64,000 nucleotides of DNA from an uncultured Mycoplasmatota bacterium (GCA_946486465.1 CAMLTY010000001.1:6679-70678), one strand, 5' to 3'; shown: positions 149 through 54,475, counted from the first letter of the stretch. Translations and numbers: made by a program. The notes: generated from the sequence alone by a model not told the origin.

Positions 149-796
149 ATGACTAAGGAAGATTTTATAAAAGAAGTAGAAAAGCTAGGTTTAAAGGTAA
201 CTGATGAAGAGTTAAAAAAGTTAGATATTATTTATAATACTTTAATAGAAACAAATAAAACTATGAACTTAACAAGAATAACTGAAGAAAGTGATGTCTA
301 TTTAAAACATTTCTATGATAGTCTAACTCTAGCCAAAGTATATGACCTATCAAAAGCTAAAACTCTATGTGATATTGGAACAGGAGCCGGCTTTCCTGGT
401 CTAGTCTTAAAAATATTTTATCCTAACTTAGAAATAACTTTAGTAGATTCTCTTTTAAAAAGAGTAAATTATCTTAATAACTTAATAGATAAATTACATC
501 TAACAGGTATAAAAGCCTATCATAATCGTGCTGAAGACTTAATAAAAGAAGGAAAAAAGTTTGATATAGTAACAGCAAGAGCTGTAGCAAACTTACCTAA
601 ACTACTATTATGGACAATGCCTTTAGTAAATAAAAATGGTAGTTTTCTTGCCATGAAAGGAAATGTTATTGAAGAATTAGAACTATCTAAAGATATTCTG
701 AAAAAACATAACTGGTATATTAATAATAAAGAGATATTTACTTTACCAAATAAGGAAGATGTAAGAACAATTTTAGAAATTAAAAATAAAGCCTAG
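149..796 (+). CDS. rsmG: 16S rRNA (guanine527-N7)-methyltransferase RsmG/GidB
   Basis: 215 aa; SAM-MTase motif DIGTGAGFPG; conserved mnmG-rsmG-noc-parAB order. Confidence 0.9.
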   Translation: MTKEDFIKEVEKLGLKVTDEELKKLDIIYNTLIETNKTMNLTRITEESDVYLKHFYDSLTLAKVYDLSKAKTLCDIGTGAGFPGLVLKIFYPNLEITLVDSLLKRVNYLNNLIDKLHLTGIKAYHNRAEDLIKEGKKFDIVTARAVANLPKLLLWTMPLVNKNGSFLAMKGNVIEELELSKDILKKHNWYINNKEIFTLPNKEDVRTILEIKNKA

Positions 797-822
797 CAAA
801 AATTAAAAATAAAGCCTAGCAA
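779..822 (+). repeat. Perfect 22-bp tandem duplication (AATTAAAAATAAAGCCTAGCAAA x2) spanning the rsmG stop codon
   Basis: Direct reading of 779-800 and 801-822. Confidence 0.6.
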
Positions 823-890
823 ACTAGTACAATTAATGATATAATGAGATTAGTAGAAAAATAAAAGAATAGAATAAAGAGGGTATGTAT

Positions 891-2336
891 ATGGATAATA
901 AAGAAAACGAAGTAGTATATTTACATTTAGATGATATAATTCCAAATAGATTTCAACCAAGACAAGTATTTGATGAAAAAGCTTTAAAAGAGTTAGCAGT
1001 ATCTATCAAAGAACATGGTGTAATTCAACCAATTATTGTTCGTAACATTGGCAATAAGTACGAAATAATAGCAGGAGAACGTCGTTATAAAGCCTCAGCT
1101 ATGGCAGGACTTACAACTATACCAGCTATTGTTCGTAATTTGGATGATAAAGAAAGTAGCAAAGTTGCTCTTCTCGAAAACTTACAACGTAAGAACTTAA
1201 ACCCAATCGAAGAAGCAAAAACATATCAAAAAATTCTTGAACTTGACCAAATGACTCAAGAAGAACTTGCTAAAACTATGGGTAAAAGTCAAAGTGCTGT
1301 TGCCAATAAACTACGTCTTTTATCTTTAACAGATGAAGTCCAAGATGCTCTTTTAAAAGACCAAATCTCAGAACGTCATGCTAGAGCCTTATTAAATGCC
1401 AAAGACCCTGAGACTCAAAAACAATTATTAAAAGAAGTTATAGATAAGAAAATGACTGTAAGAGAATTAGAGGAAAAAATAAATCCTAAAGAAGAAATAA
1501 CAAAAAGTGATATAGATGCCTTATTAAATCCATCACCTGTTAGTGCTACTATGCCTCAAACAAACTCTTTAAATGTTCCAACTAATACTAATAATACTAA
1601 TCCTAATAATGATTTTAATACAAGTGTAGGAATTGATTATTCAACTCCTCCAAAATTTATTGATTACGATGTACCAAATATAAATGATAACTTAGAGAGT
1701 ACTGCTAATAAATCTATTGATATAAATGCTATAAAAGATAATGCAAAAGATATAAATACATTAAATCCAACTAATGATACTAATGCTACTAATAATATTA
1801 GTGAGTTTTTAAAAGTTGCACCTAAAGAAGAGAAGAAAGAAGAAAAAGGTAATTTTAAATTTTTCTCACCTATGGAAGAAGAAACTAAAGAGGCACCCCA
1901 AAAACAAGAATCATCAGTATCCATGTTTGATGCCCCTGCTCCAACCAATGCTCCTTTCATCAATGATAATCCTTTTAACTTAGGAGGAGAGACTAAAGAT
2001 TTAAAAGATTCTACTAGTACATCTATGGATAACTTACTAGCAGGAGTTAATACCAATAACAATGCTTCTGTTAAAGATACACCATCAGTACCAAGTATAG
2101 ATACATTTAATAATCCATTCGCTCACAATCCAATCTTTAGCGACAATGTAAAAGCAAGTGAAGAACAACAAAAAGAAAATAAACCAAAATATACTCTAAA
2201 TGAATCTATAAATTTAGTAAGAGAAACTCTAAAGAAAATAGAAGAATCAGGCTTTAAAGTAGATAGTGAAGAAATGGACCTTGTTAATAACTATCAGATA
2301 ACTATTAAAATATCTAAAGAAAATAATAACAACTAA
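891..2336 (+). CDS. noc: ParB/Noc-family nucleoid-occlusion-like protein with a ~280-aa Asn/Thr/Pro-rich low-complexity C-terminal extension
   Basis: N-terminal ParB domain (IIAGERRYKA, GLTTIPAIVR) and HTH (ELAKTMGKSQSAVANKLRLL); located between rsmG and parA like Bacillus noc; start moved to ATG 891 for RBS spacing after agagggt. Confidence 0.7.
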   Translation: MDNKENEVVYLHLDDIIPNRFQPRQVFDEKALKELAVSIKEHGVIQPIIVRNIGNKYEIIAGERRYKASAMAGLTTIPAIVRNLDDKESSKVALLENLQRKNLNPIEEAKTYQKILELDQMTQEELAKTMGKSQSAVANKLRLLSLTDEVQDALLKDQISERHARALLNAKDPETQKQLLKEVIDKKMTVRELEEKINPKEEITKSDIDALLNPSPVSATMPQTNSLNVPTNTNNTNPNNDFNTSVGIDYSTPPKFIDYDVPNINDNLESTANKSIDINAIKDNAKDINTLNPTNDTNATNNISEFLKVAPKEEKKEEKGNFKFFSPMEEETKEAPQKQESSVSMFDAPAPTNAPFINDNPFNLGGETKDLKDSTSTSMDNLLAGVNTNNNASVKDTPSVPSIDTFNNPFAHNPIFSDNVKASEEQQKENKPKYTLNESINLVRETLKKIEESGFKVDSEEMDLVNNYQITIKISKENNNN

Positions 2337-2433
2337 AAAGTAGAGTTAAATCTACTTTTTTAGATAAAATTCTTTCCATAATAACATATTTTTGATACAA
2401 TAAAAAAGACAAATAGAAGAAGAGAGTGATAAA

Positions 2434-3222
2434 ATGGCAAAGGTAATTTCTTTAGTTAATCAAAAAGGTGGAGTAGGAAAGACAACAACAAGTATTAACC
2501 TTTCTGCCTCATTAGCATTCCTTGGTAAAAAAGTATTATTAATAGACTTAGACCCTCAAGGTAATACCACAACAGGAGTAGGAATAAATAAGGGAGATAT
2601 AGATGTAAGTGTATATGATGTTCTAACAAATAAATGCAGTACCAAAGATGCCATGATTAAAACTAAATATAAAAAACTATATGTACTACCTGCAACAATA
2701 AATTTAGCAGGTCTTGATATTGAACTACTTGAAAAAAGTCAGAGTGAACCTGGTTTTGCAAAAGGAGCCCAATTAAAATATCATCTAAAAGAGCTAGAAG
2801 ATGAAAATTTTGATTTTATAATAATAGATTGTCCTCCATCATTAGGATTAATCACAACAAATGCCCTAACAGCAAGTGACTCTGTTATTATTCCAGTTCA
2901 ATGTGAGTTCTTTGCTCTAGAAGGAATAATGCAATTACTAAATACAATAAGACTTGCTCAAAAACAATTAAATCCTAATCTAGATATAGAAGGAGTCTTA
3001 CTAACGATGTTAGATTCAAGAACTAACTTAGGTTTTGAAGTAGTAGATGATATTAGAAAGTTTTTCAAAGAAAAGGTATATAATACTATTATACCGAGAC
3101 TAATCAGATTAACAGAAGCTCCATCTCATGGAGAACCTATAATAGTATATGACCCTAAGAGTAAAGGCTCAGAAGCTTATCTAAACTTAGCAAAGGAAGT
3201 GATTGATAGAAATGGAAAATAA
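2434..3222 (+). CDS. soj: Chromosome partitioning ATPase ParA/Soj
   Basis: Deviant Walker A KGGVGKTTT; 262 aa; upstream of parB. Confidence 0.9.
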   Translation: MAKVISLVNQKGGVGKTTTSINLSASLAFLGKKVLLIDLDPQGNTTTGVGINKGDIDVSVYDVLTNKCSTKDAMIKTKYKKLYVLPATINLAGLDIELLEKSQSEPGFAKGAQLKYHLKELEDENFDFIIIDCPPSLGLITTNALTASDSVIIPVQCEFFALEGIMQLLNTIRLAQKQLNPNLDIEGVLLTMLDSRTNLGFEVVDDIRKFFKEKVYNTIIPRLIRLTEAPSHGEPIIVYDPKSKGSEAYLNLAKEVIDRNGK

Positions 3223-4099
3223 AAGGCGTGCTTTAGGAAAAGGTCTTGAAGAATTATTTAATAGTGAGCAATTAAATATTGCCGATGTAGAAGAAAAGAT
3301 AATAAATAACACTCCAAAAGACCAAATAGTAAATTTAAATTTAGATGAATTAAGAAGTAACCCTTATCAGCCTCGTAAAAACTTTGATGAAGAAAGTCTA
3401 AATGAATTAGCTTCATCTATCAAAGAGCATGGAGTATTTCAACCTATAATTGCTAAAAAAAGTATTAAAGGCTATGAAATAATTGCAGGAGAACGTCGTG
3501 TTAAAGCTTCAAGACTAGCAGGCTTAACTACTATACCAGCCATCATTAAAGACTTTACTGATGAAGAAATGATGGAAATAGCTTTACTTGAAAACTTACA
3601 AAGAGAAAACTTAAGTGCTATGGAAGAAGCAGAAGCCTATAATGCCTTAAAGACTAGACTTAATCTAACACAAGAAGAACTTGCTAAGAAAGTAGGTAAA
3701 TCAAGAAGTCATATTACTAATATGCTAGGACTTTTAACTTTGCCTAATGAAATAAAAGACGAAGTAGTAAAAGGTGAACTAAGTATGGGACATGCTAGAG
3801 TCCTAAGTAAGCTTGAAGATAAAGAGCAAGCTATAAGTCTAGCAGAAAAGACAATAAATGAAAATCTAAGTGTTAGAAGACTAGAAGAGTTAACCAATTC
3901 TAAAGAAGAATATCATCGTAAAAAAGAAATAACACCTCATAAATCAAAAGCTAAAGATAATGAATACTCTTACTTAGAAAGTGATTTATGTGAAAAACTA
4001 GGTACAAAAGTAAAGATAAGAAATAATAAACTAGAAATAAGTTTTACAAATGCTAATGACTTAACAAGAATACTAGAAATAATGCATTTAGATAAATAA
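3212..4099 (+). CDS. spo0J: Chromosome partitioning protein ParB/Spo0J
   Basis: ParB N-domain IIAGERRVKA, GLTTIPAII; HTH LAKKVGKSRSHITNMLGLL; start uncertain (TTG 3203 or ATG 3212). Confidence 0.85.
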   Translation: MENKRRALGKGLEELFNSEQLNIADVEEKIINNTPKDQIVNLNLDELRSNPYQPRKNFDEESLNELASSIKEHGVFQPIIAKKSIKGYEIIAGERRVKASRLAGLTTIPAIIKDFTDEEMMEIALLENLQRENLSAMEEAEAYNALKTRLNLTQEELAKKVGKSRSHITNMLGLLTLPNEIKDEVVKGELSMGHARVLSKLEDKEQAISLAEKTINENLSVRRLEELTNSKEEYHRKKEITPHKSKAKDNEYSYLESDLCEKLGTKVKIRNNKLEISFTNANDLTRILEIMHLDK

Positions 4100-17301: not shown

Positions 17302-17652
17302 TTATCTTAAAGTAATATCTTCTCTAAACTCTACATAATTAAGGTAAACAGTCCAAAGTAGAAAGTTATGGTTATTACTATCTCTAACAACTGCATAGTC
17401 CCTACCTGCACCAATAATAGTTCCTGTAAATACTCTATCACGCCATTCTAGTGAATCAGAATATGACATATAGAAACTTGCTTCTTTCCCTACATTTAAC
17501 TCTAAAATATTTTCAGCGTAGGCCGTATCTCCACTAATTGGAACAGTATTATTAGGAACATTATTCATATTAGGAGTATAATCATAATCAAAGTTTTGAT
17601 AAGGGGGGTCAGTACTTTGATTAGGATAAGTTTCAAAATTATTATTCATCAA
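17302..17652 (-). CDS. gerQ: Spore coat protein GerQ-like
   Basis: C-terminal region AYAENILELNVGKEASFYMSYSDSLEWRDRVFTGTIIGAGRDYAVVRD...WTVYLNYVEF aligns closely with B. subtilis GerQ (ESYIENILRLNKGKRASIYMTF...AAGRDHIIISD...YLDYITF). Confidence 0.7.
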   Translation of the reverse strand: MMNNNFETYPNQSTDPPYQNFDYDYTPNMNNVPNNTVPISGDTAYAENILELNVGKEASFYMSYSDSLEWRDRVFTGTIIGAGRDYAVVRDSNNHNFLLWTVYLNYVEFREDITLR

Positions 17653-24002: not shown

Positions 24003-25700
24003 ATGAAGTACTTAAAAGAAGTATATAATGATTTTAAAGTAGTACCCTTTAAGAAGTTTATGACCTTTCTTTTCTTTTTATCATGTATCTTAGGATATGT
24101 AGTAATGGCATTATTCCCATATTTTGCAAGTCAAATAATAAAATATGCAACAGTTGGGAACACACTAGCATATACTTACACCTTTTATCTTGCCATCGCC
24201 TACATTGTTTATGAAATCATTTGGTATTTTAACTACTACATATATAGTTTTCTTTAAACTTATTATTGTGATACTATAAATAAAAAGTTATTTAATAAAA
24301 TATGTACTTCCTAAAGAAAAATCTCTAAAACTTTAGATAAAGGAAAAATGTTAAGTCTAGAAGGTGAAGATTTATTTAATTATTGTGACTTATTGGATTC
24401 TATAACTGTTTATATATCTACAATATTTATGATTATATTAACAGTAATTTTAATATTTAAAGCCCACCTTATCTTTGCCCTTATCACAGTTATTTCCTTA
24501 GTAATCTATATTATTTTCATGTTAAAGAACATGGATAAGTTTTCTAAGTATTTAAAAGAACAAAAGAAACATAATGATACTATAAATTCTACTTATGTAG
24601 AAGAGTTAAATGCCCTAAAAGAAATAAAAACACTTCCTATAAAAGATAAACTTTATAAAAAGTTACAAACTAAACTAAATAGATATACTAAAGCTTATTT
24701 TAAAAAACGTAAATACTTTGCTAGAAATGAAAATACTAGTACTCTAATACCTCAATATACAAAGTTTATTTTATATCTTGTTTTATTAATCTTTATGGTT
24801 AAATTTAATGCAACTATTGATTTAGTAATTTTAATTATTGGTTATTACGACCAATTAATAGAAAACTTAACAGAACTGGTTTCATCATATCGGGAAATAA
24901 AAGAATATCATGTTTCTGTAAAAAGAGTAAATGAAACCTTAACTTATGAAGATGATTTATCTAATCTCTTTGGTAAATACGAAAATGATGAAATATATGG
25001 TTCTATTGTATTAAAAAATGTAAGTTATAAATATAATTCTAAATATATTTTAGATAATGTTAATCTAGAAATAAAACCAAATACTTTAAATGTCATTATC
25101 GGACCATCAGGAAGTGGTAAAACAACTCTATTTGACTTACTTCTAAGATTTTATAGAATAAACAGTGGAGAAATATATCTAGATGGTGTTAATATCTATG
25201 AATATAGTGATAGTATCTATGCTTCTAATATAACTCTAGTTAAACAAAATCCTTTTATCTATAACATGAGTATTAGAGATAATCTTCGTCTTGTTAACAG
25301 TAATAAAAAAAGACAGGAAGAAGTAATCAAAGAAGTTGGATTACACGAATTTATTATGAGTCTACCTAAAGGCTATAGTACAGTCTTAACAGGTAATGCT
25401 ACTAACTTATCAGGAGGGCAAAAACAACTTTTATCAATCGCTAGAAGTCTTTTAACAGACGCGGAAATCCTTCTAATGGATGATATAACTGCATCACTTG
25501 ATCCTAAAACAACTAATGAAATTATAAATCTATTAGTAAGACTTAAAGAAGATCATACTATTTTAGTCATAACTAATAGAGAAGACCTAATTAATAAAGC
25601 TGATAAAATAATTTATTTAAATAAAGGTAAAGCGAAAAGTTATAAGTCCTTAACAGACCTAAAAGAAAAATTAGGCCCTGAAAGTGAGGTGATAATATGA
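24003..25700 (+). pseudogene. ABC exporter subunit 1 (TMD+NBD) broken by in-frame stop codons near the 5' end
   Basis: The 84-aa ORF (24003-24257) and 450-aa ORF (24348-25700) are in the same frame and align consecutively to the paralogous downstream exporter; at least two stops lie in the 90-bp gap; NBD intact (GPSGSGKTT, LSGGQKQ, ILLMDD). Confidence 0.5.
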
Positions 25701-27436
25701 GATTAATGATAGATACCTATAAAAAATATTGGTCTTGTATTAAACCTCATAAAGGTTATTACACCATGATTTTTGTCTCTAAAGTTTTAGCAGTCATTGC
25801 AAGTATCCTCTTACCATTTACCGCTTCAGGTATTGTTAAGTATCTAACACTAGGAGACTATCAAAAAGCCTTAAAATGGATATTTTACTTCTTTGCCGCA
25901 GCCACTGCTAAAGTAATATTTTACTATTGGAATTATAAAGGTGGAGCTTTAGATTCAAATTACTGTTATACAGGACTTAAGAAGAAAGTCTTTAATAAAC
26001 TTACAACCTACGATTTAGAGTTTTCCAAACATAAAGATATAGATGAAGTACTACAAGGCTCATCTAGTGATATCTGGAAAGTTGTAGGTATTAATGATAA
26101 CTTAAGTGATATCATTATAGGTTTTATCAGAATAATAGTAATTGTAATATTAACAGCATTAACCTCACCATTAGTAGGTTTAGTAGTATTCTTATTCTCT
26201 AGTCTTTATGTCATATTTATGATGATATTCAATGAGAAAATAGTAAAATATTTAAATAAACAAAGAAAATATCAAGATAAAATCGCTGGTGTATTTCTAG
26301 AAGAATTATCATCACTTGAAGAGATTAAAGTATATGACATGCAAGATAAATATTATAATTATTTTAATACTATCAACAAAAAGTTCTGCCATAATTATAG
26401 AATGAAAAGAAGATATCATGATATTCAATTTAATTTTTTACAACTAATATTAGATTTAGGAGAAGTAAGTATTTATGCAGTTACCTTATTCTTATTATTT
26501 CAGAATGCTTATACTGTTGATAAGATAGTTTTAGTAATAGGATACTTTACTATGATGAACCAAGAATTAAAATATGTCTTACAAACCTGTGTAAAAAATG
26601 TTATAGACTGTAGAGTGTCTGTGGAAAGAATTTATTCACTTTTAAATTATCGTCCTAAAAATAGTAAAGTAACAAATACAGTTAATGAAGATGATATTAA
26701 AGGAATATTAGAATTTAGTCATGTTTATTCTTCATATCAAGATAAACAAGTCTTAAAAGATGTAACCTTTAAAGTAAAACCTAATGAATTAACCGCTATA
26801 GTAGGACGTAGTGGTAGTGGAAAAAGTACTATTTTAAATATTATCCTTAGATTAATAAAACCTGATAGTGGTAATGTCTTAATAGATAAAGAAGATATAT
26901 ATAATTATACTAATGACGTTTATAAGACTAATGTCAGTGTTGTAACACAAAAAAGTATTCTTTTTAATATGAGTATAAGAGATAATATATCTTTAGTGGA
27001 TTCTAACTTTAAAAGAATACAAGAAGTGTGCATGAGACTAGGAATACATAATGAAATACTAAGTCTACCTAAAGGTTATAATACAGTAATAGAAGAAAAC
27101 AGTTCTAATATTTCTACAAGATTAAAACAACTTCTATCTATTGCAAGAAGCATATTAACCAATGCAGAGATACTTTTATTTGATGAAGTAACATCATCAT
27201 TAGATGCCTCTAACACTAAAAAAGTTGTTAAAGTCTTTAAAGAGTTATCAAAAGACCATACTGTTATCATTATTACCCATAAAAAAGAAGTAATGAATAA
27301 AGCAGACCATTTAATTATCGTTGATAAAGGAAAGAAAGTTGCTGATGGGACACCTAAGTCTTTAGAAAATAATAAGTACTATTTAAATTTAAGAGACAGC
27401 AGTAGTGTAAGTAATAATAATTTATCAGGAGTATAA
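25697..27436 (+). CDS. ABC exporter subunit 2 (TMD+NBD) with a degenerate signature motif
   Basis: 579 aa; Walker A GRSGSGKST, Walker B ILLFDE, H-loop THK; the signature reads ISTRLKQ instead of LSGGQ, as in asymmetric heterodimeric exporters. Confidence 0.8.
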   Translation: MRLMIDTYKKYWSCIKPHKGYYTMIFVSKVLAVIASILLPFTASGIVKYLTLGDYQKALKWIFYFFAAATAKVIFYYWNYKGGALDSNYCYTGLKKKVFNKLTTYDLEFSKHKDIDEVLQGSSSDIWKVVGINDNLSDIIIGFIRIIVIVILTALTSPLVGLVVFLFSSLYVIFMMIFNEKIVKYLNKQRKYQDKIAGVFLEELSSLEEIKVYDMQDKYYNYFNTINKKFCHNYRMKRRYHDIQFNFLQLILDLGEVSIYAVTLFLLFQNAYTVDKIVLVIGYFTMMNQELKYVLQTCVKNVIDCRVSVERIYSLLNYRPKNSKVTNTVNEDDIKGILEFSHVYSSYQDKQVLKDVTFKVKPNELTAIVGRSGSGKSTILNIILRLIKPDSGNVLIDKEDIYNYTNDVYKTNVSVVTQKSILFNMSIRDNISLVDSNFKRIQEVCMRLGIHNEILSLPKGYNTVIEENSSNISTRLKQLLSIARSILTNAEILLFDEVTSSLDASNTKKVVKVFKELSKDHTVIIITHKKEVMNKADHLIIVDKGKKVADGTPKSLENNKYYLNLRDSSSVSNNNLSGV

Positions 27437-28672: not shown

Positions 28673-29488
28673 ATGAATATGAATAAGAAATTAAAATTTG
28701 AAGATTTGGAAGAAATAATAAACAAATATACAACAAAGGAAAGTAAAATATCAATTGAAATTAAAGACTTTAATGGGAATATAATTATAGAGCATAATCC
28801 AAATATAAAAGTAAATTCTGCTAGTTGTATAAAAGTAGCTATCATGATAGCTGTATTAAAAAAAGTCCAAATTAATGAATTAGAATTAGATAGATTAATA
28901 GATTTTAGAAATTTAGATTTAGATGATGAAGATGGAATCTATAATGAAATTGAAAGAAAAGCGACAGTATTAGAATTATTAACTTTTATGATTATTAATA
29001 GTGACAATTTAGCAACAGATGTACTAATTGAATTGTTTGGTTTTCAATATTATAATGATTTTTTTAAAAAAAATGGATTATTAAATACAGAACTTAATAG
29101 ATTTATGGGAATATATGACTCAGGAAAAGAAAATTATACAAGTAATGAAGATATGTATCATTTATATAAACAATTATACCAAGAAAAGATTCTAAATAAA
29201 GAATTGTGTGATATTGCAAAAAATATATTACACAAACAAAGATTAAAAGATGCAAGTCAAAGATATATTTATGAAGACATAGAAGTGTATCATAAAACTG
29301 GAGGTTTAGATAGTTTAAATTTAAGAAATGACTGTGGATATTTTGTATTGAATTATAAAGCATATTATTTTGGATTTTTCATGGAACAAATGACTTCTAA
29401 AGAAGATGCCTCTATATTAATAGGAAATTTGTTTAAATTTATTTATGAGAATATGATGCATTTATCAAAGCAAACAATTCTTGCATGA
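28673..29488 (+). CDS. Class A beta-lactamase-fold serine hydrolase, no signal peptide (cytoplasmic)
   Basis: SxxK (SASCIK), SDN (INSDNLATD) and KTG (YHKTGG) motifs in canonical order and spacing; N-terminus is hydrophilic. Confidence 0.65.
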   Translation: MNMNKKLKFEDLEEIINKYTTKESKISIEIKDFNGNIIIEHNPNIKVNSASCIKVAIMIAVLKKVQINELELDRLIDFRNLDLDDEDGIYNEIERKATVLELLTFMIINSDNLATDVLIELFGFQYYNDFFKKNGLLNTELNRFMGIYDSGKENYTSNEDMYHLYKQLYQEKILNKELCDIAKNILHKQRLKDASQRYIYEDIEVYHKTGGLDSLNLRNDCGYFVLNYKAYYFGFFMEQMTSKEDASILIGNLFKFIYENMMHLSKQTILA

Positions 29489-29736
29489 ATTAGTAGTAAT
29501 AGGAAATGATAACAATAAAAAGTATATGTAGGCAATTATATTACTAATTACAGTATAAAAAAAGATTTATATGAACTACCACTTGGAACTGTAATAGAAG
29601 AAAAACCTAAAAGAATAGTAAAAAGTAAATGGGGAACGATAGACTACAACTATAGATATTGATTTAATAGAAAACAAGATTGTATTTAGGGATAAGCTAT
29701 GCTATAATTACAAAGAAAAAGAAAGGACTGGTTATA

Positions 29737-30798
29737 ATGATAGAACGTCTTGAAGCTACAGAAAAGAAATATATGGACTTACAAAAAGAACTAATGAGTG
29801 AAGAAGTCCTAAAAGATATTAATAAAACAAGAGAATTATCAAAAGAAATGTCTGAACTAGAAGAAGTAGTAACAGTTTATCGTGAATATAAAAAGGTTAT
29901 TGAAGCTATTCCTGAGACTAAAGAAATGTTAAAAGATGATGAATTAAAAGATATCGCTAAAGAAGAGTTAAAGGACTTAGAAGTAAAGAAAGAAAAGTTG
30001 GAACGAGACTTAGAAATACTTTTAATACCAAAAGATCCTAACGATAATAAAAACGTTATTGTCGAAATAAGAGGAGCAGCTGGAGGAGATGAAGCTAATA
30101 TCTTTGCAGGAGACCTTTATAGAATGTATTCTAAATATGCTGACAAAGTAGGCTTCAAAACAGAGTTAATCAATGCTGAAGAAGGAACAGCAGGAGGCTT
30201 TAGTCAAGTAGAATTCATGGTTAAAGGTAATGGTGCCTACTCAAAGCTTAAGTATGAAAGTGGTTCTCATAGAGTTCAAAGAATCCCTGTTACAGAAAGT
30301 AATGGGAGAATTCAAACTTCAACTGCCACAGTACTTGTAATGCCAGAAGCAGAAGATGTTAATATTGAGATAAATCCCCAAGACCTTAGAATAGATATTT
30401 ATAGATCATCTGGCTGTGGAGGACAAGGAGTAAATACTACAGATAGCGCTGTTCGTATTACTCACTTACCAACTAATACAGTTGTTACTTGTCAAAATGA
30501 AAGAAGTCAAATTCAAAATAAAGAGCAAGCAATGAAAGTATTAAAAGCAAGACTTTATGAACAAGAATTAAGACGCCAAGAAGAAGAATTAGGTGAATCT
30601 CGTCGTAATAAAATAGGTACAGGAGATAGAGCCGAAAAAATAAGAACATATAACTATCCACAAAATAGAGTAACAGACCATAGAATTGGCTTTACTACTA
30701 ATAACTTAGATAGAGTTATGAATGGAGATTTAGATGAGATAATAGAAGCTTTAACTATGGAAGACCAAAGAAGAAAACTAGCAGGAGAAGAAGAATGA
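29737..30798 (+). CDS. prfA: Peptide chain release factor 1
   Basis: GGQ motif ([19 protein letters not shown]) and PxT-region; start moved to ATG 29737 after aaaggactgg. Confidence 0.9.
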
Positions 30799-31673: not shown

Positions 31674-32201
31674 ATGAAAAAATATTTAATCTTAGCAAGT
31701 TTAATCTTAGTATTTATACCTAATTTAAATAAAGAAAGTGATGAGATAGTAATACCTAATGAAGCGATAAGATTTAGAGTAATAGCAGAATCAAATACTA
31801 AAGAAGACCAAGAAACGAAAACTATTGTTAAAGATGCTTTAGAAGATGATTTAGATAAGCTTTTAAAAAACAGTACTTCAATTGATGAAACAAGAACGAT
31901 TTTAAAAGAAAATCAAAGTCATTTTGAATCTTTAGTAGAAAGAACACTTCTAACTAATAAGATAAAGACGAGCTATAAAGTAAACTATGGTATCAATTAT
32001 TTTCCAGAGAAAAACTATAAAGGAGTTATATATGAAGAAGGTTATTATGAGTCACTAGTCGTAACTCTAGGAAGTGGTAATGGTGAAAATTGGTGGTGTG
32101 TTTTATTTCCTCCTTTATGTTTAATGGAAGGTGAGGATAATAATACTGATGAAGTAGAGTATAAATCTTTTGTTAAAGAAATGATAGATAAATACTTATA
32201 A
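31674..32201 (+). CDS. spoIIR: Stage II sporulation protein R
   Basis: Signal peptide; IPNEAIRFRVIAESNTKEDQ and GENWWCVLFPPLC match SpoIIR hallmarks; prfA-prmC-spoIIR synteny as in B. subtilis. Confidence 0.85.
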   Translation: MKKYLILASLILVFIPNLNKESDEIVIPNEAIRFRVIAESNTKEDQETKTIVKDALEDDLDKLLKNSTSIDETRTILKENQSHFESLVERTLLTNKIKTSYKVNYGINYFPEKNYKGVIYEEGYYESLVVTLGSGNGENWWCVLFPPLCLMEGEDNNTDEVEYKSFVKEMIDKYL

Positions 32202-41300: not shown

Positions 41301-42425
41301 ATGAATCAACAAATAATAGAGACTCTAAAAATAGTTATAACAACGTTTTTATGCTCTGCTTTAATAATGCCCTTTATGAAAAGAATAGCCAAACATATAG
41401 GAGCAATGGACATACCAAGAAGTGATGAAGGGCATAGACATATTCATACTAAAGCTACCCCTAAATTAGGAGGAGTTGGCATATTTTTAGCCTTCCTAAT
41501 AGGTTATATGTTATTTGGAACAGAAAGCGTTCAGATGAATTCTATCTTAATAGGAAGCTTTATCATAATATTAACTGGTATTGCCGATGATATAAAATCT
41601 ATTCGTGCAAGGACAAAATTAATTGGCCAGATAATAGCAGCCTCTATCCTAGTATTTTATGGAGGATTCCTATTAAATAACATAACGGCCTTTGGTTATA
41701 CTATTAACTTTGGATGGTTCTCCTATCCTTTAACAATTCTCTTTGTAGTAGCATGTGTAAACATAATAAATTTAATTGATGGTTTAGATGGTTTAAGTGG
41801 AGGAATTAGTAGTATCTTCTTCTTAACAATAGGTATTATAGGATTTTTCCAAGGACGTAGTGGTAGTTTAGTTATGATATTAACATTTATAATGCTAGGA
41901 GCAACATTAGGATTTTTACTTCATAACTTCTATCCTGCTAAAATATTCTGTGGTGACTGTGCCATGTACTTAGGCTTTATGATAGCAGTAATTACTCTTT
42001 TAGAGTTTAAAGGACCAGCTTTAACTAGTTTATTTGTTCCCTTAATGATTTTAGGAATACCTATACTAGATACACTATTCGCCATTATTAGAAGACTATT
42101 AAAACATCAAGCACCGTTCTCTCCTGATAAAGAACATATCCATCATCAATTATTAGGAATGAACTTTTCACAAAGAACTACAGTCTTAATTATCTATGGT
42201 TTTAATATCTTATTCGCCTTTGCTTCAATTTTCTATTCCCTAAAAGACCCTTTCATGGGTAAAATATTATATATAATAATATTTATCATCGTTGTATGGT
42301 TCGTTTTAAGAACAACAGTTATCTCTAAAAAGAACAAAGAAGTAACAGATAATATAATCGAAAAAGTAGGCGAAGTTATTAAAAAAGAACCTAAATCTAA
42401 AAAAAATAAAAATAGGGCTAAATAG
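41301..42425 (+). CDS. tagO: Undecaprenyl-phosphate N-acetylglucosaminyl-1-phosphate transferase (TagO/WecA, MraY-like)
   Basis: Polytopic; NLIDGLDGL motif; 374 aa. Confidence 0.8.
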   Translation: MNQQIIETLKIVITTFLCSALIMPFMKRIAKHIGAMDIPRSDEGHRHIHTKATPKLGGVGIFLAFLIGYMLFGTESVQMNSILIGSFIIILTGIADDIKSIRARTKLIGQIIAASILVFYGGFLLNNITAFGYTINFGWFSYPLTILFVVACVNIINLIDGLDGLSGGISSIFFLTIGIIGFFQGRSGSLVMILTFIMLGATLGFLLHNFYPAKIFCGDCAMYLGFMIAVITLLEFKGPALTSLFVPLMILGIPILDTLFAIIRRLLKHQAPFSPDKEHIHHQLLGMNFSQRTTVLIIYGFNILFAFASIFYSLKDPFMGKILYIIIFIIVVWFVLRTTVISKKNKEVTDNIIEKVGEVIKKEPKSKKNKNRAK

Positions 42426-42437
42426 CTACTATTTTTT

Positions 42438-42476
42438 TTTGACAAAATTCCTATAAACTGGAAATATATGGTAAAA
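42438..42476 (+). promoter_or_regulatory. Candidate promoter for the agrA-agrC-like operon
   Basis: TTGACA-17 bp-AAATAT, then TGgTAAAAT; AGGAGGAGG RBS before GTG 42512. Confidence 0.4.
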
Positions 42477-42511
42477 TTTAAAGGTGTGCAGTATAAAAGG
42501 AGGAGGTAGTA

Positions 42512-43243
42512 GTGTTAAATTTTATTATATGTGATGATGAAAAGGAATTTAGAGATTTAATCAAAGGTGAGATTGATAAGTTTATGATGAACTATGATAT
42601 CGATTATAAGAAATATGAATGTGAGAGTTATGAAGAAGATTTTGAAAATCTTGCTAGAAAAGAGATGGGCTTTAAAGTCTATTTCTTTGATATTAAGACG
42701 AAGAATGGTTCTGGTCTAGATGCTGCTAGATTTATAAGGGAAGAACTAGATGATTGGAATTCTATTATCATAATCGTAACTGCATTTGCCGAATATAGAT
42801 ATGAAGCATTATCTAATAGGTTATATCTATTAGACTTTATAAGTAAATTTGATAATTGTAAAACAAAGTTAAATGAAACTCTAAAGATAATTTACAAACA
42901 ATTTAACAGTAGAGAAAAGTGTCTTAGTTATGAGTATAACTATACTTTGTATAATATAGCATTAAAGAATATTATCTATATTGAAAAAGAACAAGATAGT
43001 AAAAGATGTATAATTCATACAGATTATGGAACATTTAAAGCTCCGTATACATTAAGTGCAATATCAAAAGAATTAGATAAGAGATTCTTAAAAGTACATA
43101 AGAGTCTAATTTTAAATACGGATAAAATAAGAAGTTATGATATTAAAGAAAATGAAGTGCTATTTGATAATGGTATGAGCACTAACTTAATATCTAGATC
43201 AGGTAAAAAGGAGTTGATTAATTATGTCACTAATAATCATTAA
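42512..43243 (+). CDS. agrA: AgrA-like response regulator (receiver + LytTR DNA-binding domain)
   Basis: Receiver acidic residues (ICDDE, FFDIKT); C-terminal LytTR region (FLKVHKSLILNTDKI) with AgrA/ComE-like architecture. Confidence 0.8.
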   Translation: MLNFIICDDEKEFRDLIKGEIDKFMMNYDIDYKKYECESYEEDFENLARKEMGFKVYFFDIKTKNGSGLDAARFIREELDDWNSIIIIVTAFAEYRYEALSNRLYLLDFISKFDNCKTKLNETLKIIYKQFNSREKCLSYEYNYTLYNIALKNIIYIEKEQDSKRCIIHTDYGTFKAPYTLSAISKELDKRFLKVHKSLILNTDKIRSYDIKENEVLFDNGMSTNLISRSGKKELINYVTNNH

Positions 43244-44513
43244 AGTAATAGGTTCATTAATAATGGCAATTACATCCTACTTTTCTATAAAAAATATTAT
43301 TGCACCAAATTTAAAGATAAAGAAAAGTTATGTATTATTGTCATTAATAATAATATCAATGCCAACTCTCTTAATGTATGACACTAAGTATAGTCTTCTA
43401 GTAACAGTAATTGTTTATGTATTAATGATAATAATTATTAAGTATTTATTTAATATAGAAGTAACAAATTCAATTTTAGTGTGCGGATATGTTATGCTCC
43501 TAACTGCTATAATTGATGTAACATTAACCATAGTAGAAATACCAATATTCTCATATTCTCAAGTTAGAAATATTTGGTATATAAACATAGTCAATAGTAT
43601 AATCATAGGAATTATCACAATACTCGTATCTCGCAATAAAAATACAATTAAAATATTCAAACAAATAAGTTCAAAAGTGGAGGATAGTCATAAGCTGAAA
43701 ACTGCAATTTTTACAATTTTAATTATTGGAGTTGTATGCTTATTGTATTATAATATTACCACAATATTTGAATTTAATTTACAATATACTATTACTTTTT
43801 TTAGTATAGTACTGTTCTTTATATTATACTATATCTATATGGAGGAGAGAAATAATTATCAAAAATTAAAAGATGAATACAATATAATTTTTAATTATGT
43901 TCAAACATTCGAAGATTGGATAGATAATGAACAAATGTATAGACATGAATTAAAAAACAATTTGTCTATTATTAGAAATTTGTCAAATAAAAAAGAAATA
44001 AACAAAAAAATAGATAAAATGTTACAAATGAATATGTTAATAGATGATAGTTATATAGAAATATTAAAAGATATTCCAAAAGGCGGCTTAAAAGGTCTCT
44101 TATATTATAAATTGGCACTTGCAAATAAATATAATATTGATATGTATATAGATGTTAGTCCTAAAATAAATAATAAGTTAACAAAAATAAATAAAACATT
44201 ATTAGAATCAATTTGTATAATTTTAGGTATCTATATAGACAATGCAATAGATGAATGTAAAAAGATGAAAAGGAAAAATATTACTATAGAGATATATGAG
44301 AAAGACGAAAATTTAAACATTGTTATTTCAAATACATGCAATAAAGTAATTTCAATAAAAAAGATGAACAAAAAAGGTTATACCAGTAAAGGAAAAGGGC
44401 ATGGCAATGGCCTATATTTTGCAAATAAAATCATAAAAAGAGAAAAAAGACTGAACACAGAACAACAGTTTCTAAATAATTATTTCATTCAAAAAATAAT
44501 AGTTCAAAAATAA
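43224..44513 (+). CDS. agrC: AgrC-like HPK10 sensor histidine kinase
   Basis: ~6 N-terminal TM helices; H-box YRHELKNNLSIIRNL; G-box SKGKGHGNGLYF; C-terminal blocks align with S. aureus AgrC; overlaps the regulator gene by 20 nt. Confidence 0.8.
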   Translation: MSLIIIKVIGSLIMAITSYFSIKNIIAPNLKIKKSYVLLSLIIISMPTLLMYDTKYSLLVTVIVYVLMIIIIKYLFNIEVTNSILVCGYVMLLTAIIDVTLTIVEIPIFSYSQVRNIWYINIVNSIIIGIITILVSRNKNTIKIFKQISSKVEDSHKLKTAIFTILIIGVVCLLYYNITTIFEFNLQYTITFFSIVLFFILYYIYMEERNNYQKLKDEYNIIFNYVQTFEDWIDNEQMYRHELKNNLSIIRNLSNKKEINKKIDKMLQMNMLIDDSYIEILKDIPKGGLKGLLYYKLALANKYNIDMYIDVSPKINNKLTKINKTLLESICIILGIYIDNAIDECKKMKRKNITIEIYEKDENLNIVISNTCNKVISIKKMNKKGYTSKGKGHGNGLYFANKIIKREKRLNTEQQFLNNYFIQKIIVQK

Positions 44514-44532
44514 AAAGAGTGAATATTCACTC
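44512..44532 (-). terminator. Terminator for agrBD (minus strand)
   Basis: Perfect palindrome GAGTGAATATTCACTC followed on the minus strand by TTTTTA; lies between the convergent agrC and agrD stops. Confidence 0.55.
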
Positions 44533-44545
44533 CAGCATGATAAAA

Positions 44546-44665
44546 CTAATCCATATTTTTTAGTGCATCAGGCTCATTAAGACACCACCAAACGCATCCA
44601 ATACTAGCACTTGCAGTAGCTAACATAGCAACAGCTGCTAGAACTTTAGCCATTCTTTTTTTCAT
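44546..44665 (-). CDS. agrD: AgrD-like autoinducing-peptide precursor (39 aa: MKKRMAKVLAAVAMLATASASIGCVWWCLNEPDALKNMD); absent from the ORF track
   Basis: Hand translation of the minus strand; amphipathic N-terminal leader, Cys-containing core CVWWC, then a charged tail LNEPDALKNMD with conserved Pro; sits 48 bp downstream of agrB on the same strand. Confidence 0.75.
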   Translation of the reverse strand: MKKRMAKVLAAVAMLATASASIGCVWWCLNEPDALKNMD

Positions 44666-44713
44666 TTCCTTCTCATTCCTTTCTTTACTACTATTTATTT
44701 AAACATAAAATGT

Positions 44714-45307
44714 TTAAACCCTCTTATAATTTCTATATGGTTCTTTAAATATTAAATACATAATAGGAGATATTAATATTGTTTCAATAAGTAAAGCTGC
44801 CATTAATAAATTACTAATTTCCATACCATTAAACACTATAATAAGTACACTATATAAAACTGCCAAACTACAAGCCACTACTTTTCTAAGTACTCTTTTC
44901 TTCTTATTAGTTAAAGGTCTTTTCCAAGTGTCAGCAGGTGCACAAATTATAAATGTTATAACTGAAACTATACATAGAATTATCTTAATATTAAGACCAA
45001 CTTCGATACTAGTAAATAAATATGGTAGTCCTAATATCAAAAGTGTACTCGTAATTAAACAAACTATAGACTTACTTGCATGAAATCCAAAACCAGGGAA
45101 TCTAATTATATTAAAAAGTATTAACGTAATAATAAACTCTTTAATAAATCCTAGAAGAAAAGCTACTAGAAAGATTACTACAAGCTTAGTTATAGTCATA
45201 TATAACCCTTCTAAACCATATTGTAATTTTTCTTTTTCTTCTTCGTTTAAGTTTTCTTGATTACTAGCAATAAAGTTCATAGTATGATTTAAAAATGCTT
45301 CTTTCAT
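44714..45307 (-). CDS. agrB: AgrB-like membrane peptidase (AIP-processing)
   Basis: 197 aa polytopic; catalytic His/Cys block RFPGFGFHASKSIVCLI (compare S. aureus RRHAHGAHAPSSFWCYV); basic loop PADTWKRPLTNKKKR (compare PAATKKKPIPVRLIKRKK). Confidence 0.85.
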   Translation of the reverse strand: MKEAFLNHTMNFIASNQENLNEEEKEKLQYGLEGLYMTITKLVVIFLVAFLLGFIKEFIITLILFNIIRFPGFGFHASKSIVCLITSTLLILGLPYLFTSIEVGLNIKIILCIVSVITFIICAPADTWKRPLTNKKKRVLRKVVACSLAVLYSVLIIVFNGMEISNLLMAALLIETILISPIMYLIFKEPYRNYKRV

Positions 45308-45560
45308 ACCATTCCTCCTATGCTATAAACATTATATCTCTATAATATTTTAAAATATAATTTTTCCATAAAATACATAATATGAGCTTTTTAAAGATAT
45401 TTCGACATGCTTTTTCATTAAAAATACATTTTAAGGCCTCATAATAACATTTGACGGCAATTTTCTAAATATTCTTATAACAGTTGCTATAATGGACTCA
45501 CATCGTTTGAAAAGTAGTTCTAGCAAAAAAAAGGAATAAAAAGATGTGGAGGTGAGCCTA

Positions 45561-45779
45561 GTGATTGGAAGAGTAAAATGGTTCAATAATGAAAAAGGGT
45601 ATGGCTTTATTGAATACAAAGAAAACGAAGATATTTTCGTTCATTATTCAACTATTAATTGTGACGGTTATAAAACTTTGTCTGAAGGTCAATATGTAGA
45701 ATTTACATTACTTGAAACTAGCAAGGGATATCAAGCAGTCGATGTTACACCAATAAAAGAACCAGCTTTAGCAAAATAG
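45561..45779 (+). CDS. cspA: Cold-shock protein (CspA family)
   Basis: MIGRVKWFNNEKGYGFIE... RNP1/RNP2 motifs; GTG 45561 is 5 nt after GGAGGTGA. Confidence 0.85.
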   Translation: MIGRVKWFNNEKGYGFIEYKENEDIFVHYSTINCDGYKTLSEGQYVEFTLLETSKGYQAVDVTPIKEPALAK

Positions 45780-53349: not shown

Positions 53350-54475
53350 ATGAATAAAAATGAGTTATTAAGAGCATTAACAAGTGAAAAAGAAGAAATA
53401 CTAAGTTTATGGAGGTCACTTTGACACAGATAATAAACTTAAAGAACAAGAAGAACTAGAAAAAGAAACTACTAAAGAAGATTTTTGGAGTGATCCTAGT
53501 AAAGCAGAGACTACTATTAGTGAGTTAAAGAGGTTAAAGGAAAGAACATCTAAGTTAATAGACTTAAAGAAAAAAATATTTGACTCTATAGAATTACTAG
53601 AGATGTTAGATGAAGAAAGTGATAAAGATTTATTAGAAACTCTAGAAGTTGATAATAAGACAATAAAAGAAGATTTAAAGAGTTTAAGTATCTATCTACT
53701 ATTTAATAAACCATATGATAAAAATAACTGTATCGTTGAAATACATCCTGGTGCAGGAGGAACTGAATCTTGTGACTGGGCTAATATGCTTTATAGAATG
53801 TATACAAGATACTGTGAGAAAAAGAACTTTAAAATAGAACTACTTGACTATCAAGCAGGTGAAGAAGCAGGACTTAAGAGCGTCTCTTTTAAAGTAAAAG
53901 GTGAATATGCTTATGGCTATTTAAAAAATGAAAAAGGAGTCCATCGTCTAGTTAGACTATCTCCCTTTGACTCATCTAATCGTCGTCATACTTCTTTTGC
54001 AAGCATCGATGTAACTCCAGAAATATCTAAAGATATTAAGATAGATATAAATGAAAAAGACTTAAAAATAGATGTCTATCGTTCAACAGGTGCCGGAGGT
54101 CAAGGAGTAAACACTACTGATAGTGCAGTACGTATTACTCACTTACCTACTAAAATAGTTGTAACTTGTCAAAATGAAAGAAGTCAAATTCAAAATAAAG
54201 AAACGGCTTTACAAGTATTAAAGAGTAAGTTATATGTATTAGAAGAACAAAAAAAGGAACAAGAACTTGCTAAAGAAAAAGGTATTCAATCTAATATAGA
54301 TTTTGGTAGTCAAATAAGAAGTTATATTTTACACCCATATTCTCTAGTTAAAGACCATAGAACTAATTATGAAACTAGTAATACTAAAGGAGTATTAGAT
54401 GGAGAGATAGATAGTTTTATTGAAAGTAGTCTAAAAGGAGGACTAAATGAAGAAAATGATAAAGCAAAAGATTAG
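53350..54475 (+). CDS. prfB: Peptide chain release factor 2, made by a programmed +1 frameshift (join 53350..53421, 53423..54475)
   Basis: Frame 0 reads MNKNELLRALTSEKEEILSLWRSL then TGA; SD-like GGAGG followed by tca CTT TGA C is the canonical RF2 shift site; the +1 frame continues into the 290-aa ORF carrying SPF and GGQ motifs. Confidence 0.9.
53411..53425 (+). promoter_or_regulatory. RF2 autoregulatory +1 frameshift site
   Basis: GGAGGtcaCTTTGAC: internal SD, slippery CUU codon, in-frame UGA and the following C. Confidence 0.85.

Follow-up and report, generated by a model that had tools for sequence, protein, structure and literature searches.

A complete agr-type quorum-sensing locus of convergent layout, with a recombining pherotype cassette, in an uncultured lineage of gut Bacilli

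The 64,000-nucleotide (nt) stretch of DNA analysed here over its full length (hereafter the window; GCA_946486465.1 CAMLTY010000001.1:6679-70678, from an uncultured Mycoplasmatota bacterium) encodes a complete agr-type system of four components: a LytTR response regulator (agrA), a sensor kinase (agrC), a pro-peptide (agrD) and a membrane peptidase and cyclase (agrB). The original prediction of such a system, in the convergent order agrA>agrC> <agrD<agrB, is borne out by profile matches, invariant catalytic residues and comparative evidence and, as far as can be judged from the sequence, its protein families, its precursor and the co-variation of peptide core and receptor are those that define agr systems. 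It very probably forms a functional autoinducing-peptide (AIP) quorum-sensing system, organised in two convergent units and carried by spore-forming, uncultured gut Bacilli near 'Candidatus Onthousia'. Systems of this type are familiar from staphylococci, clostridia, listeriae and lactobacilli, and the present locus is ordinary in kind and leaves the concept of agr signalling unchanged. What is new is the demonstrated exchange of a cassette, the scale of pherotype diversity, the signal-peptide-like leader of AgrD and a probable link to Spo0A.

According to the listing of open reading frames (ORFs) and the sequence itself, two of the genes lie on the plus strand and two on the minus strand ( Table 1 ), with 32 bp between the convergent stop codons. 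The profile search proposed as a check on AgrB, the kinase and the LytTR protein placed all three well above their cutoffs. The regulator carries a LytTR domain (PF04397, 56.6 bits against a cutoff of 22.6, 3e-15) and its best NCBIfam model is AgrA; the receiver domain gives a weak profile match, as is typical of AgrA, and the top match in the PDB, which is also the sole solved relative, is the LytTR domain of Staphylococcus aureus AgrA. The kinase is of the GHKL type (HATPase_c_5, PF14501, 42.9 bits against a cutoff of 22, 4.9e-11) and matches the staphylococcal AgrC model along its entire length. The sole relatives of the kinase in the PDB are the S. aureus AgrC structures 4BXI and 6E52, with the H-box aligned, and its residues 1-205 contain about six hydrophobic, putatively transmembrane segments. 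AgrB matches its own family profile (PF04647, 110.7 bits against a cutoff of 23, 7.3e-32), and a comparison by sequence with solved structures returned no relative for it.

Invariance of individual residues was judged over 41 homologues from full loci. In AgrB the invariant positions are R69, G74, H76, C83 and the loop P124-x-D-T-x-K-R-P, in the kinase H241, N340, G394 and G396, and in the regulator D9, D60, K112, N202 and R229. The catalytic His/Cys block that had been attributed to AgrB is therefore upheld, H76 and C83 being invariant and seven residues apart; these residues align with H77 and C84 of S. aureus AgrB.

Table 1. Features of the agr locus and of its predicted control regions (coordinates are those of the window).
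Feature	Coordinates	Strand	Remarks
agrA-like LytTR response regulator	42512-43243	+	243 amino acids (aa); GTG start, strong ribosome-binding site (RBS) ahead
agrC-like HPK10 sensor kinase	43224-44513	+	429 aa; start overlaps agrA end by 20 nt
agrD pro-peptide, MKKRMAKVLAAVAMLATASASIG-C-VWWCL-NEPDALKNMD	44546-44665	-	39 aa
agrB membrane peptidase and cyclase	44714-45307	-	197 aa
Hypervariable pherotype cassette	43199-44601		Whole agrC, convergent spacer, agrD tail and core
agrAC promoter region	42439-42477	+	TTGACA at 42439-42444, extended -10 TGGTAAAAT at 42469-42477
agrBD intrinsic terminator	44506-44533	-	7-bp stem, 4-nt loop, then UUUUUAUUUUU
Predicted agrBD -10, TATAAT	45331-45336	-	ATAAT conserved in all close relatives, constant distance to RBS
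Consensus Spo0A box, TGTCGAA	45401-45407	-	100 nt upstream of agrB ATG
Weak LytTR-like direct repeats, TCTTTAAAA, 12 nt, GTATTTTAT	45368-45397	-	From anchored alignment of agrB upstream regions

AgrB homologues of 80-97% identity are abundant in gut metagenomes, the sole named one being from 'Candidatus Onthousia', and the host is an uncultured lineage of gut Bacilli near this taxon. A scan of species-representative genomes yielded 50 related loci, 49 of them from metagenome-assembled genomes (MAGs) of uncultured Bacilli or 'Tenericutes' of chicken, rabbit, mouse, ruminants and humans; one of the 50 lies in a circular genome of 1.52 Mb. All four genes are present as agrB>agrD> <agrC<agrA in 42 of the 50 loci, and in six more the contig stops before the full locus. 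One locus (L039) has no detectable agrD, and the sole locus outside the lineage (L050) is an Acidobacteriaceae contig with a partial AgrB-like match only. The order M23 peptidase-MreB-GT4 glycosyltransferase-[agr]-Csp-HPF-SecA is kept in every one of the 49 lineage loci, among which the identity of the flanking SecA ranges from 99% down to 71%, indicating that agr is an old, vertically inherited core locus and not an island. The whole lineage keeps agr as a fixed core locus, in several hosts. The placement of the locus in a backbone region free of adjacent toxin or bacteriocin genes also stands: its neighbours are housekeeping genes, and no toxin or bacteriocin gene was found near it. A LytTR system of the bacteriocin or competence type was considered and rejected, since no double-glycine peptide, C39-peptidase ABC exporter or immunity genes occur nearby and AgrB is present.

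The window also encodes a SpoIIR-like protein (31674-32201, plus strand; PF09551, 131.7 bits) and the spore-coat protein GerQ (17302-17652, minus strand; PF09671), suggesting that the host is, or recently was, an endospore former. This uncultured gut lineage, with a genome of about 1.5 Mb, thus appears to form endospores.

The smallest of the four genes, agrD, was confirmed by the ORF listing as the predicted AgrD-like ORF, starting 48 bp past the agrB stop codon, and it is unbroken in every related locus that extends that far. The expectation that automated annotation would miss it was mistaken: gene callers do find the 39-amino-acid gene, in NCBI, ENA and Logan assemblies and on metagenomic contigs, and its exact product is already present in public protein sets, nameless and without a Pfam match. 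It is unnamed because its score falls under the cutoff of the AgrD model TIGR04223, which nevertheless matches 16 of 20 AgrD family members (best E 2.2e-6). A search of public data with an alignment-based profile returned AgrD-like peptides in 610 clusters; 121 of the cluster representatives were retrieved and these contain 88 distinct cores. Every core is strongly hydrophobic, with C-[VAIM]-W-[WF]-x-x as the typical form, and the family as a whole follows the pattern MKKRMAKVLAAVAMLATASAS-x-G-C-x5-[E/D]-E-P-K-A-L-K-N-M-D, with A20, G23, C24, E31 and P32 invariant. When 20 close species are compared, the mean pairwise identity is 0.23-0.44 at residues 25-30, and most other positions are identical. 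The codon differences in the leader and tail are mainly at third positions and 55-76% synonymous, against 8% synonymous in the core, a pattern which argues that agrD is translated and has a diversifying core, and which points to purifying selection acting on its leader and tail.

The core of agrD and the kinase gene agrC vary in concert and are transferred jointly, as one recombining cassette. Whereas the public 90% clusters of the regulator and of AgrB have 271 and 206 members, respectively, the kinase stands alone in its cluster. Among close species the mean pairwise identity is about 0.9 for the regulator and about 0.8 for AgrB, compared with 0.5-0.75 for the cytoplasmic half of the kinase and about 0.35 for its sensor half. 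Clusters of kinases coincide with classes of agrD core (C-x-W-[FL]-C-x, C-[VI]-[LI]-[FW]-[IL]-[IV], C-[GA]-W-W-[ML]-x and the group of the window, C-x-W-W-C-[LA]) and cross the species tree. Also, among close species, sensor identity correlates with core identity (correlation 0.29, Mantel p<=0.0005) but not with the identity of the regulator (-0.09) or of AgrB (-0.17). This matching of kinase clusters and peptide cores suggests ongoing selection for cognate recognition.

Exchange of the cassette is seen from both sides. With respect to three related loci (L007-L009) the flanks of the window are 98-100% identical and the region of about 43200-44600 shows only 50-60% nt identity, whereas with respect to three others (L052-L054) the flanks are 85-93% identical and a single mismatch occurs in the 1403 bp of the cassette. 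This two-way contrast indicates that the cassette has been exchanged between diverged genomes by recombination in conserved flanks. One breakpoint is in the 3' end of agrA (43198/43199), and the other falls somewhere from codon 22 of agrD to the 3' end of agrB (44602-44720). Further recombination has taken place inside the locus but outside the main cassette: at 44800-45100 agrB is a mosaic, being closest to L001 (94-100% nt identity), whose flanks are 85-93% identical, and 87-92% identical to L007-L009 in spite of their 98-100% identical flanks. Two loci assigned to the same MAG, E07__bin114 (L016 and L021), have the same Csp/HPF flank, the cores CVWIIA and CAWWMC and different kinases; they probably represent a strain mixture in which the cassette breaks assemblies.

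In the canonical agrBDCA arrangement the agrD core adjoins the sensor-coding 5' end of agrC. The convergent order places the agrD core and the sensor at opposite ends of agrC, and in this we infer the reason for the hypervariability of the whole gene: a pherotype exchange would drag the entire kinase gene along, kinase domain included. The locus would in this sense be a clean natural example of gene order shaping which part of a locus turns hypervariable. Also, candidate peptides of the different pherotypes could be synthesised to manipulate or culture these gut organisms.

The two units appear to be controlled separately. The agrAC promoter ( Table 1 ) immediately follows the terminator of the GT4 gene upstream. 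In the 20 close species some 40 nt of it, TTGACA and TGGTAAAAT included, are nearly invariant, its ATATGGTAAAAT is retained even in distant relatives, and there is no space for activator boxes upstream. Transcription of agrA-agrC from this conserved extended -10 promoter of its own would keep receptor and regulator present. At the opposite end of the unit, the palindrome GAGTGAATATTCACTC (44517-44532) had been taken for a terminator shared by both operons. It is a terminator in the agrBD direction, but the T-run is found on the minus strand only and the element is thus not obviously shared: the minus strand folds with -12.3 kcal/mol, whereas the plus strand forms a 6-bp stem without a U-tract. 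This minus-strand hairpin is the sole terminator-like site within 42300-45700, and its U-tract overlaps the stop and final codons of agrC. Hairpins of the same kind are found in relatives; many have A- and T-runs on their flanks, and are thus potentially bidirectional, and many lie partly within agrC.

Upstream of agrB no convincing -35 was found for the TATAAT hexamer, and a good -10 without a -35 suggests that agrBD depends on an activator. The TGTCGAA box located further upstream matches the Spo0A-box consensus exactly (7/7); of 38 non-redundant regions upstream of agrB, 22 contain it, where 0.5 would be expected. Both orientations of the box occur, and its distance from the agrB start codon stays within 94-105 nt. 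The divergent neighbour of agrB, a cold-shock protein gene (csp) and not an RNAIII-like RNA, was rejected as the owner of the box, since the distance is kept to agrB and varies with respect to csp. In five distant relatives the perfect box is present twice, with 3 bp between the copies, and both the consensus and this dimer spacing are those described for Spo0A (PMC2731898). The agrBD promoter is therefore a probable target of Spo0A, through a predicted site.

A possible, though less likely, reading is that the TGTCGAA element belongs to an operator of AgrA itself and that agrBD is purely auto-induced, as is P2 of S. aureus. LytTR regulators bind direct repeats of 9 bp, with spacers of 12-13 bp, upstream of the -35. 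The LytTR-like pair ACAGTTAAT, 12 nt, TCTTTTAAT stands 3 nt behind the box in many relatives, at the position of the weak repeats of the window, and the repeats ATGTC[AG]TTC of 21-bp period upstream of agrB in Clostridium tagluense and Clostridium estertheticum share ATGTC with the element. However, its full identity to the Spo0A consensus, its occurrence in either orientation and the sporulation genes of the organism favour Spo0A, as does its duplication in the distant relatives with the Spo0A spacing rather than the 12-13 bp of LytTR sites. The best-supported wiring would thus combine constitutive agrAC with an agrBD promoter activated by Spo0A~P at the Spo0A box and/or by AgrA~P at the weak LytTR-like repeats. 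Clostridial agr mutants sporulate poorly (PMC8102284), and a link of agr to sporulation is our best guess for this lineage as well; it offers a testable tie between quorum sensing and Spo0A-controlled sporulation in gut commensals.

The mature signal predicted from the AgrD family is a six-residue thiolactone, cyclo(CVWWCL) in the strain of the window. Position 29 of AgrD varies as much as positions 25-28, E or D prevails at position 30, and six-membered AIP rings have been documented in Clostridium acetobutylicum and its relatives (PMC12312760, PMC10301443). These rings, the variability of residue 29, the invariant E31-P32 and homologues with C-x5-EEPK all suggest that AgrB cuts before residue 30 and produces a six-residue ring. 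AgrB, by means of H76 and C83, would remove the conserved tail [E/D/N]EPxALKNMD and close the thiolactone between C24 and residue 29. A single Cys is present in 68 of the 121 precursors, and a second one, where it occurs, is at ring position 5 or 6. C28 was rejected as the ring-forming residue, being a single residue away from the predicted cleavage site and lacking in most family members.

The AgrD leader is not a classical amphipathic helix; its n-region is basic, its h-region is hydrophobic and its A-S-x-G-C is invariant. It would be removed outside the cell, most likely through a type I signal peptidase cut behind A20, so that Ser-Ile-Gly stays on the ring as a tail; a non-lipidated peptide with a Ser-x-Gly tail is favoured because the Cys is needed for the ring and because A20 and the small residue at -3 suit that enzyme. 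A cut directly before the Cys, giving a tail-less and possibly rearranging peptide, is also possible. The same leader could, in principle, be a true signal for signal peptidase II (SPII), in which case Lgt would attach diacylglycerol to Cys24 and Lsp would cleave off the leader; a lipidated peptide anchored in the membrane would result, perhaps closed head to tail by AgrB and acting at short range or by contact, and no diffusible thiolactone would be made. Its n- and h-regions and A-S-x-G-C fit this idea, 119 of the 121 family members pass the permissive PROSITE-type lipobox pattern, there are weak NCBIfam matches to lipoprotein signal models, and a 2026 paper reported SPII signals in a subset of AIP precursors, leaving it unclear whether these become lipoproteins (PMC13056109).

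We nevertheless consider lipidation improbable. None of the 121 members passes the Gram-positive G+LPPv2 pattern, because the residue at -3 is invariably Ser, while the invariant A20 and the small residue at -3 fit type I signal peptidase. Moreover, the sole Cys of the 68 single-Cys precursors is required for the thiolactone, and a second Cys is too near the cleavage site for ring formation. In the S. aureus model AgrB acts ahead of export, which here would block the thiol and leave a precursor that is no substrate for Lgt and Lsp. A G+LPPv2 scan of the window ORFs of at least 100 aa gave no match, which is uninformative as regards Lgt and Lsp. The AgrD family, with hundreds of single-Cys and two-Cys variants available, is a concrete test set for the lipidation of signal-peptide-bearing AIP precursors, a question raised in the 2026 paper (PMC13056109).

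With the non-lipidated thiolactone as signal, the polytopic domain of AgrC would sense the peptide and AgrC would phosphorylate AgrA at D60. A bolder proposal, that the AgrD family matures through the secretion/lipoprotein machinery instead of the classical route and that AIP production is wired directly to Spo0A, we hold to be doubtful. If true, the signal could be a tail-less six-residue AIP, cut before the Cys and able to rearrange to a homodetic cyclic peptide, or a lipid-anchored AIP, and quorum sensing would be a pherotype-specific checkpoint for sporulation and transmission in a gut lineage of reduced genome.

Several observations weigh against a functional system as depicted here. The peptide, its ring size and the leader cleavage site are all inferred, and the AgrD of the window itself scores 12.4 bits with TIGR04223, against a cutoff of 19. 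No spo0A was seen within the 64-kb window, and TGTCGAA, tried as a marker of a regulon, was rejected, as its 5 copies against 2.2 expected are no significant enrichment over the window. The LytTR-like repeats of the window are degenerate, with about 5/9 matches to the AgrA consensus, and are candidates only; agrAC has no clear terminator, so that its transcript may run on into agrD as antisense. The analysis identified no target genes and no RNAIII-type effector, the Rfam scan of the window having given only the leader of ribosomal protein L31 (37892-37923, plus strand; RF03156, 36 bits). The degenerate boxes and the failure to find a regulon or effector RNA would suit a decaying or silent relic with genes intact by chance, or a kinase that hears mainly the peptides of other strains, but either is very improbable given the four ORFs intact wherever contigs reach, down to 71% SecA identity, the invariant catalytic residues, purifying selection on the agrD leader and tail, the tight matching of kinase clusters and peptide cores and a recently transferred cassette preserved intact.

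Other features of the window were recorded in passing. Further exact TGTCGAA matches occur at 30060, 31601, 45983 and 56203 (+); one of the four precedes spoIIR by 73 bp and another falls within the ftsE-ftsX promoter. At 149-4099 (plus strand) lie gidB, a gene for a long (483-aa) ParB/Noc-like protein, soj/parA and spo0J/parB, with ssb and a DnaB-type helicase gene further on; this origin-proximal gene set suggests that the window is near the replication origin. No tRNA genes were found in the window. A complete RF1 is encoded at 29680-30798, and an RF2-like ORF (53603-54475, plus strand) begins at position 59 of the PCRF profile, probably on account of the programmed +1 frameshift that is usual in prfB. 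The region 28673-29488 (plus strand) encodes a class A beta-lactamase-family protein (PF13354, 2e-41) and has an MFS transporter and a pair of ABC exporters (24348-27436) beside it.

The regulator-first, convergent layout is real but is not peculiar to this locus. A literature search on convergent agr layouts found no explicit statement, and the question was settled by annotated plasmid records: in the RefSeq annotation, the order agrB>agrD> <GHKL kinase<LytTR regulator recurs on C. tagluense pCM022-183 and C. estertheticum pCEST-001C, with a 6-bp gap between the convergent stops. Their AgrD is the closest annotated one and likewise has a C-x5 core, followed there by EEPK, and their AgrB is 39% identical to that of the window over its full length; regulator and kinase are only 26-29% identical. 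Unlike the locus of the window, these loci are plasmid-borne, their AgrD leader is classically amphipathic, and upstream of agrB they have clear LytTR repeats of 21-bp period beside a TTGACA -35 and no Spo0A box. In the two plasmid loci (L059 and L060, positions 3800-3990) the repeats read ATGTC[AG]TTC[GA]AT[AG]CAATT, immediately before TTGACA and agrB, and are likely to be a LytTR operator. Neighbours of agr on the plasmids are radical-SAM/SPASM genes (L060) and an ABC transporter (L059). In contrast, the plasmid loci of C. taeniosporum (agrBDCA) and Enterococcus raffinosus are co-directional.

Regulator-first order is also known from C. difficile agr2, a single locus agrA-agrC-agrD-agrB (PMC3754575), which has been described as co-directional, an insertion in agrA2 being expected to be polar on all four genes (PMC4453554); its AgrD2 has Ser in place of Cys. 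The agr system of C. acetobutylicum consists of agrBD plus agrCA, makes the AIP R6T0 [CVLVTL] (PMC12312760, PMC10301443) and controls sporulation-related traits (PMC12312760, PMC10301443, PMC8102284). It resembles the locus of the window in its two separate operons, its six-residue thiolactone ring and its lack of an RNAIII-type effector, and differs in having the kinase before the regulator and a LanM-like effector gene after, whereas the window has the regulator first, convergent units and no adjacent effector.

With agrBDCA of S. aureus the locus shares the four protein families, the catalytic residues and a hypervariable region that sets specificity groups. The S. aureus system is a single operon with a divergent RNAIII, a five-residue ring and an amphipathic leader, and its hypervariable region extends over part of AgrB, over AgrD and, within AgrC, over the sensor half only; in the lineage of the window, the whole of agrC is variable and AgrB is largely conserved. 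A parallel to the exchange of pherotypes is found in comCD of Streptococcus pneumoniae and comQXP of Bacillus subtilis, in which signal and receptor likewise co-vary and are reshuffled by recombination among close genomes, although their protein families and peptide chemistry are unrelated to those of agr.

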